Source: Nitrosopumilus sp.
GTDB lineage: Archaea > Thermoproteota > Nitrososphaeria > Nitrososphaerales > Nitrosopumilaceae
Direction of reading: 5' to 3'
DNA: 64,000 nt
NCBI GenBank assembly: GCA_965205675.1
Contig: OZ242186.1
Location: 960,001-1,024,000, forward strand
Under the pieces are notes generated by a model, which did not search any database, was not told the DNA's origin, and saw only the letters and a list, made by a program, of their open reading frames with translations. Every line of letters begins with the position of its first letter. Within the stretch, counting starts at the first letter, position 1. A program made the position numbers and the translations under genes. Positions 34,475-39,537 of the stretch are shown in pieces.

Positions 34475-35885
34475 GTAACTGTCTAGAGTTTTGAAGTACT
34501 TTCTTTAATATTTTTTATCTATATCTTTTCTGATCAGTGACAAATTACAATATACAATTGTCAGTATATGATGAGCTGGAATATTATCGTAACAGATGTC
34601 ACTCGCTGGAGCAAGAAAACCGTCAGTTACGCAAAGATATTGAATCACTACACAGAGAAATTGCAGAACTAAAACAAACAGTGTCTACACTTGTTGCAAG
34701 AAATATCAAAGCAAAACCAAACAAGACTGAAACTGCAAAAAAGAAGAAAACATCAAGACATCCTAGAAAAAGCAGAAGCAGACGGGCACACATTGATGAT
34801 GCCATTACAGTTGACCAAAAAGAGTGCAACACATGTGGCAAATCACTCTCAGAACCAACTGATTCATACACCAGAATAGTAGAAGACATCATTCCTGCAA
34901 AAGCAGTTGTGACAAAATATACGATAGTTAGACGATACTGCACAAACTGCAAAAAACAAATCTCGGGTAACATTCACACTGTACTGTCAAATGAAAGGTT
35001 TGGAATTAGGCTCATGGTGCTAATCACATCACTAAAAACTATCGGATTATCGTATGGTAAAATATCTCATCTTTTGCAGATGCTCTTCTCACTGCACATT
35101 ACAGAATCTGCAATTAATCATGCAGTATCAATAGTATCAAAAGCATTTGGGAGCAGATATGATACAATGATTGTGGAGTTAAAAGAAGATCTAAACATAC
35201 ATGGTGATGAGACAAGTTGGAGGGTAGATGGCCAGAACCACTGGTTGTGGGCATTTGTGAGTAAATGGACTGTAATTTACGAGATTGACAAATTACGTTC
35301 AATGGATGTTCCCAAGAGAATTCTCAAGGGATATGATGGCAACATTACAAGTGATTCGTACCCTGCATGGAACCATGTTGGAAGCACTCACCAGAAATGT
35401 CACATCCATTATCTCAGAGAGGTTAATGATACCATTAATCACAAGAATCCCGGACCAGAATTTGCACCATTTGCCAAGAATCTCAAGAAAATAATTTATG
35501 ACTCTCATGGTGTGGCAAAAATAAAATCAGAATCAGAAAGAATCCATGCAAAAAAGAATCTTGAAAGGAGAATTAATCACATCATATCAAAAAAATACAC
35601 AGAGAAAAACTGTATCAGGTTTGTAAAAAGATTGAAACGTGAGAGAAAAATGCTTTTTACATTCCTAATTACTGGAACTGATTCACACAATAACACAGCA
35701 GAGAGGGCAATCAGACCAAATGTGATAATTCGTAAAATTACAAACGGTCATAGAACCATTCATGGTGCTGATTCTCATAAGATACTGATGAGTATAAAGG
35801 AGACATGCAGATTACGAGGATTAAACTTTCATGATTATTCTTTAGAATATCTTGGAGATTTTACTTCAAAACTCTAGACAGTTAC
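34475..35885 (+). mobile_element. IS66-family element (copy 4)
   Basis: TIRs; 8-bp TSD GAATTTTT. Confidence 0.96.
34537..35877 (+). CDS. IS66 transposase (446 aa)
   Basis: One residue different from copy 3. Confidence 0.95.
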   Translation: MTNYNIQLSVYDELEYYRNRCHSLEQENRQLRKDIESLHREIAELKQTVSTLVARNIKAKPNKTETAKKKKTSRHPRKSRSRRAHIDDAITVDQKECNTCGKSLSEPTDSYTRIVEDIIPAKAVVTKYTIVRRYCTNCKKQISGNIHTVLSNERFGIRLMVLITSLKTIGLSYGKISHLLQMLFSLHITESAINHAVSIVSKAFGSRYDTMIVELKEDLNIHGDETSWRVDGQNHWLWAFVSKWTVIYEIDKLRSMDVPKRILKGYDGNITSDSYPAWNHVGSTHQKCHIHYLREVNDTINHKNPGPEFAPFAKNLKKIIYDSHGVAKIKSESERIHAKKNLERRINHIISKKYTEKNCIRFVKRLKRERKMLFTFLITGTDSHNNTAERAIRPNVIIRKITNGHRTIHGADSHKILMSIKETCRLRGLNFHDYSLEYLGDFTSKL

Positions 35886-36124: not shown

Positions 36125-36457
36125 ATCTTTTTTTAGAAGTCAAATGATTTTAATCTTTTTGGTTTGATTGTTCATGCTCTATTATCCTCAAATTAGTTCA
36201 CCCCATCATTTCCAGACTAAAGTCAAGATACGTTTGGAAAAGAGGAAAGAATCACAAGATTATGCAAAAGTTAGATCCAATCCAGATATCCTGGATAATC
36301 AAGTCAAAAGAGGATGGTGCCAAGAACGCAGACGTAGCCTCATCCATGAAGATATCTGTTCGGTGGGTGCAGAAACTCTACTCACGGTATCGCCGTACTG
36401 GTGCAATTCCGATTCTAGGCAAGCCTGGAAGGCCAAAGGGAATAACTATAACCATAT

Positions 36458-37550
36458 GTGCCAAAATCAGCTAGGAAATTAGATGGTACTTGCATTCGTA
36501 TCAAGAAAGTAAGAAATGCAAACAAACACACTACCCTTCCTGAAAAAAAATATTTGATGTTTGTAGGATTGGATGTTCACAAGAACTCTGTACAGGTGGC
36601 AGCAGTAGATGAGATTGGCAAATTATTATTTAACAAAAAGATTTCCAGTGATTTTTCTGCTATTAGCAAAATTACATCCAAAATTCCAAAGAACGCAAAA
36701 TATGTTTTAGAGTCATCATCTGTCTGGTATGGCCTTTATAGACACATGACAGACAAATTACATCTTGATGTTATACTATCTAATCCATACAACACAAAGA
36801 TAATAGCATCATCACTCAAAAAGACTGATAAAATTGATGCGTACCATCTTGCAAATTTGCTACGAGGAGGGATACATTGCAGAATCATTTGTGCCAGATC
36901 ACACAATTGTGCAATACAGACAGCTTGTAAGACATCGACACAAGATTGTGCGCATCATTGTAAAGATGAAGAATTCCATACATGGTATTACACTACAGGA
37001 GGGAATCCATATCAAAGCAACACCATTTTCCTCAGAACACATACGTGCACTTGGAAAATTGGAGAGTTATAGAATAGATTCGTACCTACAAAGCATAAAA
37101 TTTCACAAAAAGGAGGTTGCAAAGATAGATTCCATGATACGTCGCATGGTAAATGATAATTCTGATGTGTGTATTTTGACATCAATACCTGGAGTTGGAC
37201 CATACACTGCATTGAGCATATTCTCAGAAATTGCAGAGATTAGTAGATTTTCAAATTCTCACAAGTTATGTGCATATGCAGGGATTGTTCCATCGGTGAG
37301 AAATTCTGCAGATACAATACATCACGGAAGAATTACAAAGAGAGGAAGCACCATGCTAAGATGGTTGCTAGTGGAGGCAATTCATGCACATGTTAGATAC
37401 GCACCAGATAGCGACATTACAAAATTTTATAATCGCATTAAGAAAAAGAGAGGGACCTCAAAGGCAGCAGTTGCTGCTGCATCAAAGTTATTGCGTGTCA
37501 TATATTGGATGCTAAAAGAGAGGAGAGAATTTGTTCAATGTCATCAATAA
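36458..37550 (+). pseudogene. IS110 DEDD recombinase, frameshifted near 36870
   Basis: FVGLDVHK, LESS, KKTDKIDA; then SIPGVG, AYAGIVPSVRNSA, GRITKRG, LRWLLVEA in another frame. Confidence 0.9.
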
Positions 37551-37565
37551 TTTGTAAAACATTAC

Positions 37566-37781
37566 AGTTAGGAGTTTGGCCGCGTTTTCACATTGAGGAT
37601 GCATAATACCTCGAAACTATAACCGCGGTTTCACCTAATAAATGGATGAAGATGGTACTGGGGGAGAACCCCGAATGGATATGTGTCTGGTTTCATCTGT
37701 GATTGAAAGTATGAGTGTATTAGCGTAAGCTGTAATTAATATGGCAAAAATACCGACAATAGTTAAAAGGGATTCACATGG
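37566..37781 (+). ncRNA. Candidate IS110 bridge/seekRNA 1
   Basis: Nested stems (TTAGG/CCTAA, CCGCG/CGCGG, GAGG/CCTC; GATGAA/TTCATC, GGGG/CCCC; AGC-GTAA-GCT) conserved with 38894-39100; short matches to flank and junction. Confidence 0.65.
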
Positions 37782-37785
37782 ATAT

Positions 37786-38899
37786 GTGAATAAGAAAGCA
37801 AGGAAATCAGATAGCATAAAAAATGAATCTAGTTCCAAGGTTCGTAAATACTCGGCTCCAAAAAAGATTACAAACAAACAGATTAGAAAAAATCCAAAGA
37901 AAGGCATGTTTGTGGGCATTGACCTGCACAAGAAGTTTCTTCAAGTAATAAATGGATGATGCAGGCAAAGTATTACAAAATGACAAAGTGGATAACACGC
38001 ATGAATCCATAAAAAAGCATTTTGCAAAAATACCAATTTCTGCAAATATTGTAATGGAATCCTCATCAGTCTGGTATGACACGTATCGATTTCTCACAGA
38101 TACTTTGGGATACAAAAACGTCACACTCTCAAACCCATATTTGACAAAGGCAATTGCTACATCAAAAAAGAAAACAGACAAGATTGATGCCAAGATATTG
38201 GCAGATCTTTTACGAGGAGGATACATTGCCACATGTTATGTTCCAGACAAAAAGATTGTACAACAAAGACAGCTTGTAAGATATAGGAAAAAACTAATCC
38301 AATGGAGAACATCTGTCAAGAATTCAGTTCATGGAATATTGTTACAAGAAGGAATCAAGATTCCAGGAGTTACATTCACTGAAACATACAACAGAAGACT
38401 CAAGGCACTAGGAGATTACAGAATAGACGGATTCTTGCAACAAATCAGCCACCTTAATTTACAGATTGCAGAGATTAATTCCAAAGTGTATGCTGCTGTA
38501 AAAGTTAATCCTGATGCAATTTTGATAAACTCGATTCCAAGAATTGGGCATTATTCTTCGCTTGTCATTGCATCAGAGATTGCAGATATTGAAAGATTCA
38601 ATGATTCCCACAAACTGTGTGCATATGCAGGAGTTGTACCATCAGTTAGAAACTCTGCAGATACAATACACCATGGCAGAATAACAAAAAGGGGAAGCAT
38701 GACATTGAGATGGGTTCTAACAGAATGCATACACACTCATGCAATTCATGCCAAAGACAGTGACATTACAAAATTTTACAATCGCATTAAAAAGAAAAGA
38801 GGATCATCCAAAGCTGCAGTAGCTGGTGCATCAAAGATCCTGAGGGTGATTTATTGGATGTTAAAGGAGAGGAGAGAATTTGTACAAAATTATAGTTAG
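37786..38899 (+). pseudogene. IS110 DEDD recombinase, frameshifted near 37950
   Basis: GTG start; FVGIDLHK in the first frame, MESS, KKTDKIDA, AYAGVVPSVRNSA in the second. Confidence 0.9.
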
Positions 38900-39100
38900 G
38901 ACTGCAAGTCGCGTTGTAATTATTGAGGGACAAGGCCTCGTCTAATAACTGCGAACAATCCTAACTAGGATGAAGATAGCATTGAGAGAATAGTCTCGTA
39001 TGGATACATGTCTGCCATCTTTTGATTGAAACCATTCTCTAGCGAAAGCCATGCCCTGATGTATGGAAAGAAAGGAAATGTATAAAAACAATTCACATGG
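38894..39100 (+). ncRNA. Candidate IS110 bridge/seekRNA 2
   Basis: Same scaffold as RNA 1 with compensatory stem changes (GAGA/TCTC for GGGG/CCCC; GAAA for GTAA tetraloop) and different loop sequences. Confidence 0.65.
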
Positions 39101-39537
39101 ATAATTACATAAAATTAGTTTGGGGGTAATAGGTTTACAATCACCTAAAATAAAACTCTAAATTTTATGCGCCAGTTCTGTACAAAGTTACCATACAATA
39201 TGCTATTTCTTCAACAAAACGTTCATCTTCACTAACTGAAGCATATTTTGTAGCATTATTCCAAAAAGATGGTTTTTTAGTATGATTTTCTATGAATAGT
39301 TCGCTCAATACTTTTCATCATACTTTGATCGGATAATCATTCACCTCAATCAAAATTAACCTATTGCTAAAACAGATACACTTTACTTTGTTTTCAGCAT
39401 TGTTTATTTGAGATACAGGCAGAATGATTCACAAAGATGAAGGTTTGGATTATAATTTCCAGGACGCCCAAAAATTAGGATTAATTATGCCCAAGTCTCA
39501 ATTATTTACGAAAAATCCAACATTGCATCATTTTATT

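Follow-up and report, generated by a model that had tools for sequence, protein, structure and literature searches.

Predicted bridge RNAs lie in the right end of 93% of the IS1111 elements of ISfinder (Durrant et al., PMC11208160), and in the seekRNAs of IS1111 elements the top-strand match is located 5′ of the bottom-strand match (PMC11187229). Archaeal IS110 recombinases are already known (bioRxiv 2024.06.21.599552), and high loads of insertion sequences (IS) have been noted in metagenome-assembled genomes (MAGs) of Nitrosopumilus (PMC13343696). Here, we analysed a 64,000-nt stretch of a Nitrosopumilus sp. genome (contig OZ242186.1, positions 960,001 to 1,024,000), hereafter the window. It contains two tandem IS110-family elements of the IS1111 type, which we named ISA (left) and ISB (right); a third, related element type found elsewhere in the same genome was named ISC. 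The host genome is a single contig of 2.01 Mb and belongs to the Nitrosopumilaceae. An original prediction for this locus had proposed IS110-family elements with the core AT and a right-end guide of the bridge/seekRNA type, in which a donor loop is accompanied by a target loop that has been reprogrammed from one element to the other, and had named covariation among homologous right ends and agreement between loops and flanks over many copies as the checks to be made. The proposal holds: ISA and ISB are new archaeal members of the known RNA-guided IS1111-type kind, whose mechanism has been described in bacteria, and we consider it very probable that their right ends carry a two-module guide RNA with a target loop and a donor loop, which would be made and bound by the recombinase.

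The N-terminal RuvC-like DEDD domain and the C-terminal Transposase_20 domain with catalytic Ser, by which the IS110 family is recognised, are both present, and PF01548 and PF02371 were matched in both the ISA and ISB recombinases (Pfam). Intact sibling proteins scored 229 and 251 bits against the NCBIfam model NF033542 “IS110 family RNA-guided transposase” (cut-off 140). In sequence, the solved structures nearest to them are those of the ISCro4 and IS621 transposases, and the relatives among named records come from Nitrosopumilus, Cenarchaeum, and Nitrosopumilaceae MAGs. The intact ISB protein carries GIDLHK, MESSS, KTDKIDA, and PSVRNSA, which we take, with section 6 of PMC11187229, to hold its catalytic residues.

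Within the family, the layout is that of IS1111. The longer non-coding region lies 3′ of the gene (ISA: 231 nt after the stop codon, 37551-37781, vs 107 nt before the ATG; ISB: 201 nt vs ~130 nt), and subterminal inverted repeats, expected to be ~7-17 bp long, are present (in ISB, ATGTGAA 6 nt from the left end and TTCACAT 2 nt from the right end; across the family, CCATATGTG and CACAT(G/A)G). The guide segment complementary to the top strand precedes, in the 5′ to 3′ direction, the one complementary to the bottom strand, and no target duplication was found, the core being kept on both sides (four empty vs occupied sites, with ambiguity limited to ATAA). The layout of the IS621 type (IS110 group) does not apply, as the RNA is in the right end, the guide order is reversed and the core is AT/NT. 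The general plan of both elements is AAC(C/T)ATATGTG, recombinase gene, guide RNA, and CACATGG, flanked by the core (N)T, here AT.

A two-module RNA and its loops

Applied to nine right ends of the window's own genome, RNAalifold yielded a predicted RNA of ~145 nt encoded in each right end and composed of two modules, each with a stem, an internal loop, and a hairpin. The RNA begins at or just past the recombinase stop codon, and we placed it on the recombinase strand because it contains near-invariant G-U pairs (e.g., GU in 70 of 73 rows at columns 26/94). The covariance model built on this structure retrieved homologues from 16 of 150 other genomes of the family, and from 8 of 27 genera including the window's own genome. 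In this discovery set (78 matches, 73 distinct), 91.1% of cells were paired vs 41-49% with slid partners, 21 of 31 pairs had double changes, and the double-change cells were 227 vs at most 34 after sliding. In a second set, gathered via the protein (69 matches, 55 distinct), the corresponding values were 95.2% vs 40-53%, 15 pairs vs 2-5, and 56 cells vs at most 8. Thus, the stems were supported in two sets of homologues: helices 1, 2, 3, and 6 well, helix 4 moderately. The scaffold that the original prediction saw shared by ISA and ISB is also there, since the two right ends align with a mean column identity of 76% and show conserved blocks around variable stretches, and the compensatory changes are genuine (e.g., CCGCG/CGCGG vs UCGCG/UGCGA and GGGG/CCCC vs GAGA/UCUC).

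The strands of loop 1, in module 1, are the most variable part of the RNA. In the proposed mechanism, the 5′ strand would pair with the core and the right flank on the top strand, while the 3′ strand, which has top-strand sequence, would pair with the bottom strand over ~4 nt of left flank, the core, and then AAC. Insertion points were located with a right anchor, CACAT[G/A]G-AT, and a left anchor, AAC[C/T]ATATGTG, both fixed beforehand in the discovery set, omitting from each test the elements without a recognisable anchor, and the null was obtained by swapping guide-flank pairs between guide types, per guide type rather than per copy. As hold-out we used the second set after dropping the 5 of 69 rows identical to discovery rows; some genomes are common to both sets. 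The reverse complement of the 5′ strand shared with the core plus 12 nt of right flank a longest exact run of 5.39 nt on average, vs 3.43 (sd 0.14) for swapped pairs, a value reached in 0/2000 permutations (43 guide types, 67 unique pairs); in the hold-out it was 6.24 vs 3.78, again 0/2000 (25 types, 53 pairs). The 3′ strand agreed with the 6 nt before AAC, i.e., left flank and core, at 3.64 of 6 positions vs 2.25 (0/5000; 26 types, 33 pairs), and in the hold-out at 3.72 vs 2.56 (0/5000; 14 types, 31 pairs). The left-flank signal occupied positions −2 to −5 and faded by −6 in the discovery set, and the variable core base was matched in 73% and 87% of pairs vs 28% and 32% of swapped ones. Loop 1 therefore follows the flanks in both sets. 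Examples are GCGCAGTATA with AT-ATACTGCGG and TTATGATTGT with AT-ACAATCATAA, as well as AGTAAATGTA with GCATTTACG as against AGTAAATATA with GTATTTACA.

Loop 2, in module 2, is a conserved part of the RNA and corresponds to the ends of the element that carries it. The final 4 nt of the right end, together with the core, are reproduced by its 3′ strand (ATGGAT or ATAGAT) in 65/71 discovery and 60/60 hold-out elements, whereas its 5′ side, ATGGT(T), ATAG, or ATGA, complements left ends starting with AACCAT, AACTAT, or AATCAT. Left ends with AACT go with ATAG in 32 of 33 cases, and of 50 left ends with AACC, 32 go with ATGG. Among the exceptions, six have ISA-type left junctions and look like ISA/ISB chimeras. 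As a donor loop, module 2 would thus copy the last right-end bases and the core with its 3′ strand (ATGG/ATAG-AT), and its 5′ side (ATGGT(T) or ATAG) would face the start of the left end (ACCAT or CTAT). The donor-loop bases that follow the core (ATGTG in ISA) were tried as a handshake with the right flank, but this was not established as a family rule: swapped pairs reached the observed value in 2/5000 permutations in the discovery set, but in 420/5000 in the hold-out.

A read-through into the left end was found in loop 1. The three bases after the core in its 3′ strand are AAC in nearly all elements. In 31/42 and 32/38 unique combinations the element's own left end opens with this same triplet, and the right flank does so in only 4/42 and 1/38. 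By analogy with the handshake guides of IS621, the AAC read-through may act as a handshake.

All seven strings on which the original prediction was built were recovered, as were the scaffold and the frameshifts discussed below; its third module and some of its boundaries were not. In ISA, AACTATAACC occurs at 37615-37624 and 36444-36453, TTCACAT (37587-37593) is complementary to ATGTGAA (37784-37790), and ATGGATATGTG occurs at 37675-37685 and 37778-37788; in ISB, TGTAATTAT (38915-38923) is complementary to ATAATTACA (39101-39109), and ATGGATA is located at 39000-39006. In 2000 dinucleotide shuffles of each RNA region, the 10-mer match between the ISA loop and its left side was reached 6 times, the 9-mer match between the ISB loop and its right side 17 times, and the 7-mer TTCACAT, which also copies the element's own subterminal repeat, 154 times, so that the last is unremarkable alone. 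The 10-mer had been read as left flank of ISA; the match stands and its register does not, since it consists of 4 nt of target (AACT of ISB), the core AT, and AACC of ISA's own end. Similarly, ATGGATATGTG had been read as a match to the end junction, and this is correct for ATGGAT(A), the donor match, while the trailing ATGTG fits the right flank and not the ISA circle junction.

The three hairpin-within-loop modules originally described reduce to two. What stands in place of the third, 3′ of module 2, is a conserved hairpin of only 4 bp, UAGC-GNRA-GC(U/C)A, with a GNRA-type loop and no variable internal loop; over 34 distinct windows, 77% of its cells were paired vs 12-45% with slid partners, with few double changes. 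RNAalifold found no larger consensus for the tail, and the comparison of the tail with either flank on either strand gave no cognate excess (22/300, 28/300, 236/300, and 132/300 permutations reached the observed value). These results give no support to a third guide loop.

Boundaries, targets, and tandem formation

The own genome contains 10 full ISB copies, 5 of them solo, 8 full ISA copies plus one interrupted by an insertion, and three intact ISC copies plus a fourth cut at its left end, besides degenerate and chimeric ones. Solo ISB copies read ...(T)CCA-AT-AACTATATGTGAATAAG ... TTCACATGG-AT-AATTACA, and the same genome has four paralogous sites without an insertion, with the sequence ...CCAAT|AATTACA.... 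From the solo copies and these four empty sites it follows that ISB begins with AACT, ends with CACATGG, and has the core AT, with ambiguity only within ATAA. The string ATAATTA(C/T)A directly follows 10/10 ISB copies. Under the boundaries of the original prediction the empty ISB site would be AATAACT-AT-AATTACA, which was not found in the own genome at ≤1 mismatch; placing AACT inside ISB gave the four empty sites. Only the T of the core is constant, as seen in an empty copy of a repeated host element in another genome, G044 (GTTC-TG-CATT), and in the ISC left junctions (..GT-AACC), and the first core base of the target is kept at the left junction. The cores TA and AA were dropped because only (N)T fits ISC, the miniature inverted-repeat transposable element (MITE) of G044, and the empty ISB sites together. 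This MITE-like repeat (L106, G044:C1:338616-340660) is bounded by inverted ends, GGTATGAGGTCA ... TGACCTCATACC, forms an insertion within an IS tail, and holds the uninterrupted target ..AAGTTC-TG-CATT.. of G044's commonest IS type.

By comparison with the solo ISB and ISC left junctions, the ISA insertion comprises AACCATATGTGCC...CACATGG plus AT. ISA thus starts at 36450 and not, as originally placed, at 36454, its AACC being part of the element according to the solo junctions and empty sites; therefore, it is inserted inside the left end of ISB, between AACT-AT and ATGTGAA. In the own genome, 10/10 ISA-type left junctions read AAC(T/C)-AT-AACC (7 with T, 3 with C), and ATGTGAATAA follows 9/9 ISA right ends, where it represents the left end of a sibling: ISB in five full tandems and at three fragments, ISC in one case. 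ATGTGAATAA also follows all 4 complete ISA-like RNAs in other genomes. The real target of ISA is the left end of sibling elements. Coherently, its guide would be programmed for AAC(T/C)-AT-ATGTGAATAA, the left end of ISB- and ISC-type siblings, and that of ISB for ..TCCA-AT-AATTACA, with a donor circle junction that would read ...CACATGG-AT-AACTATATGTG.... ISA lands 6 nt inside a sibling every time because the target for which it is programmed is the sibling left end, and tandems form as a consequence.

The features of the window are listed below.

Features of the ISA-ISB tandem, with positions in the window
Feature	Position	Strand	Basis or remark
ISA, IS1111-type element, AACCATATGTGCC... to ...TTCACATGG	36450..37781	+	tandem copies vs solo ISB/ISC left junctions; family-wide junctions
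Core AT of ISA, left copy	36448..36449	+	empty-site logic applied to junctions; right copy 37782-37783
AACT, first 4 bases of ISB left end, severed by ISA insertion	36444..36447	+	solo ISB copies read LT-AT-AACTATATGTGAATAAG (LT, left target); empty sites ..TCCAAT|AATTACA..
Remainder of ISB, ATGTGAATAAG... to ...TTCACATGG	37784..39100	+	10 full own-genome copies, 5 solo
ISB left target GGGA and core AT	36438..36443	+	register from empty sites
ISB core AT and right target AATTACA	39101..39109	+	reverse complement of loop-1 5′ strand 38914-38923
ISA recombinase gene, split by one extra G in run 36869-36871	36557..37550	+	Pfam PF01548, PF02371
ISB recombinase gene, broken by 2-base deletion around 37946-37953	37906..38899	+	own-genome copy comparison
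ISA guide RNA (predicted)	37562..37709	+	covariance-model match, 108 bits, E 5.3e-20
ISA target loop	5′ strand 37585-37593; 3′ strand 37614-37624	+	
ISA donor loop	5′ side ATGGT 37652-37656; 3′ strand ATGGAT(ATGTG) 37675-37685	+	
ISB guide RNA (predicted)	38890..39032	+	covariance-model match, 162.7 bits
ISB target loop	5′ strand TTGTAATTAT 38914-38923; 3′ strand TCTAATAACT 38941-38950	+	fits flanks of solo copies and empty sites
ISB donor loop	5′ side ATAG 38976-38979; 3′ strand ATGGATA 39000-39006	+	
Small conserved hairpin AGC-GUAA-GCU, ISA tail	37722..37731	+	formerly the third module
Small conserved hairpin UAGC-GAAA-GCCA, ISB tail	39040..39051	+	counterpart of ISA tail hairpin
ISB right subterminal repeat TTCACAT	39092..39098	+	inverted copy of ATGTGAA 37784-37790; kept across family
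A/T box	39082-39089 (ISB); 37762-37769 (ISA)		same place in relatives

The A/T box (TATAAAAA, TTTAAAAA, TTATAAA) is conserved in nearly all members of the family, at a distance of ~12-20 nt from the right end. One possibility is an archaeal TATA box from which transcription would run outward, either over the circle junction or into the following element of a tandem. Just upstream of the tandem there are an IS66-family transposase gene (PF03050, zf-IS66) at 34537-35877 (+) and a small helix-turn-helix open reading frame (ORF; HTH_23) at 36262-36443 (+), whose end is the insertion site.

Alternative explanations and mobility

The fold, the tracking of flanks by guides, the element boundaries, and the targets were all obtained computationally, and several results weigh against the guide-RNA interpretation. 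The changes in helix 5 are almost only one-sided, and this helix overlaps the proposed left-end guide in a region where the fold is uncertain. The two alignments from which pairs were counted had been fitted to the model structure, a procedure that favours the model; single-sequence folding energies were no better than those of shuffles (z 0.25 and −1.01); and the Rfam scan gave no matching family, with 7 weak, irrelevant matches far under the gathering scores. The left-flank matches are short (~4 nt plus core) and absent in several copies. In one MAG, the flanks of each of two copies fit the guide of the other. Related elements are also non-independent samples. As for the read-through, the identity of AAC and the left end is one between two near-constant strings and not a covariation, and the left-end anchor demanded at least a 3/4 match to AACC. 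Several copies do not fit their own guide, and flanks that fit the guide of another element suggest recombination between copies.

If the right-end hairpins were instead DNA or protein-binding sites, with the protein picking the target, the matches between loops and flanks would be by-products of end repeats. The ISA loop-1 string TTCACAT, being also a subterminal repeat of the element and reached in many shuffles, counts in favour of this view. However, if the other strand or a cruciform of the DNA were the active form, the conserved G-U pairs would turn into A-C mismatches, the loop strands vary by element and follow their own flanks in two data sets, and the protein family is the RNA-guided one (NF033542), so that we regard this explanation as very improbable. 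Still less credible is that the likeness of loops and flanks derives from shared descent of duplicated segments rather than from guide-directed insertion. Three tandems do share the same 30-nt left flank, and several relatives sit in repeated host elements, but solo ISB copies are unrelated past ~8 nt on each side, empty paralogous sites exist, and the permutations were performed per guide type and repeated on other genomes.

The composite view has somewhat more in its favour, although we judge it improbable: the tandems would be a single 2.65-kb unit moving with ISB ends and the ISB guide, ISA not having targeted ISB five separate times. Indeed, the five tandems lie in ISB-type sites, with AT-AATTA(C/T)A on the right and the AACT of ISB kept on the left, and the composite has left unbroken the first six bases of ISB (AACTAT), those that the ISB donor loop faces. 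On the other hand, ISA is also found beside three short fragments of the ISB left end (118, 252, and 179 nt) and beside an ISC copy, ATGTGAATAA again follows ISA-like RNAs in other genomes, and loop 1 of ISA itself fits AACT-AT and ATGTGAA. Movement of the composite and targeting of ISB by ISA can coexist. The common 30-nt left flank precedes 3 of the 5 tandems, which have two different right flanks, and this suggests recombination between copies.

Chimeric elements, in which the left end and 5′ gene half of ISA are joined to the 3′ half and right end of ISB, were observed in the own genome at 754384-755680 (−; locus L052), and also in L155, L158, L185, and L189; recombination within tandems would be expected to produce them. 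Duplications of right-end pieces or RNA modules within one locus occur in L056 (two RNA matches 355 nt apart), L105, L063, and L066, including repeated CACATGGATA termini. In the ISA copy at 441792-444218 (−) of the own genome, base 417 is followed by an insertion of ~1.1 kb. The own genome also holds two other abundant repeat families, each present in dozens of copies, that terminate in TTCACATGT (..gtattttttaTTCACATGTgtaattacc.. and ..cctgtcaaTTCACATGTcaggtacatcc..).

Both recombinase genes of the window are frameshifted, as the original prediction stated, and intact copies exist elsewhere. The ISA gene is split at the same G run in 8/8 full own-genome copies, and a 98.3%-identical ISA copy in another Nitrosopumilus MAG (L164) has GG there, one G fewer, and an open frame of 365 codons. 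The ISB gene carries in 8/10 copies the 2-base deletion, which separates the first catalytic Asp from the rest, and is intact in the other 2 (331 aa from the first ATG); the three full ISC copies are all intact, and the intact own-genome recombinases measure 331-333 aa. Intact copies are located, for example, at 615809-617129 (ISB) and 178460-179812 (ISC) of the own genome. The presence of frameshifted ISA copies in at least 7 different contexts points to movement in trans, to slippage at the G run, or to a mutation spread by conversion; of these, movement in trans may account for the copies observed. We only tentatively, and with more doubt than confidence, extend this to a view of ISA as a guide-carrying hyperparasite of its relatives, in which a sibling recombinase would move ISA in trans while the RNA of ISA itself guides. 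Separately, and with equal doubt, the AAC read-through on the guide pairing with the bottom strand hints at a handshake on the strand opposite to that of IS621, and hence at another order of strand exchange.

These elements would extend bridge/seekRNA recombination, on comparative evidence, to ammonia-oxidising archaea. Their reprogrammed target loops, more than 60 in number and each with a known insertion site, form a natural library, from which working rules can be read for the Nitrosopumilaceae clade (long right guide, short left guide, core NT), and since intact recombinases are present in the same genome, tests are feasible without gene repair. The targeting of sibling ends also explains the head-to-tail pile-up of elements, a point that matters for the assembly and annotation of IS-rich Nitrosopumilus genomes.

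Comparison with known systems

Our literature search found no description of these RNAs in Nitrosopumilaceae; the supplementary tables of Durrant et al. may list related elements. What may be new is a frameshifted element that has its own guide and targets the left ends of its siblings, together with a read-through on the guide that pairs with the bottom strand.

On the protein side, the ISCro4 transposase (PDB 9t56) is the closest solved by sequence, and both of its domains align with the Nitrosopumilaceae recombinase (E 5.8e-12); the apparent likeness, read from sequence alone, is distant. The bridge RNA of IS621 (Durrant et al. 2024, PMC11208160; Hiraizumi et al. 2024, PMC11208158) similarly has two internal loops, for target and donor, each of which uses one of its strands to pair with the bottom strand on the left side of the core and the other to pair with the top strand on the right side. 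There too T is conserved as the second core base, and some guide bases read over the core into the partner DNA. In contrast, the RNA of IS621 is located in the left end upstream of the gene, the guide order is reversed (PMC11208158), and the core is CT. Moreover, the handshake bases of IS621 adjoin the right guides and pair with the top strand, whereas the AAC of the Nitrosopumilaceae RNAs sits on the guide that would pair with the bottom strand.

The closest likeness is with the IS1111 seekRNAs of ISEc11, ISPa11, ISKpn4, and ISPst6 (Siddiquee et al. 2024, PMC11187229). These share with the Nitrosopumilaceae elements the non-coding region 3′ of the gene, the subterminal inverted repeats, a recombinase of ~330-350 aa with the G..P....S motif, and two short RNA segments that fit the two target strands in the same order. 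The long RNA form of IS1111 elements, given as 148-172 nt in a table of PMC13604230, is comparable to the ~145 nt modelled here. The Nitrosopumilaceae elements differ in their archaeal host, their AT-richness, and their very short left-flank match, in being known as sequences only, and in the constant AAC after the core, which equals their own left end. Finally, another IS1111-type element likewise has the end of another mobile element as its natural target; in the case of ISA, however, the targeted end is that of a sibling of the same family, which gives rise to head-to-tail tandems.

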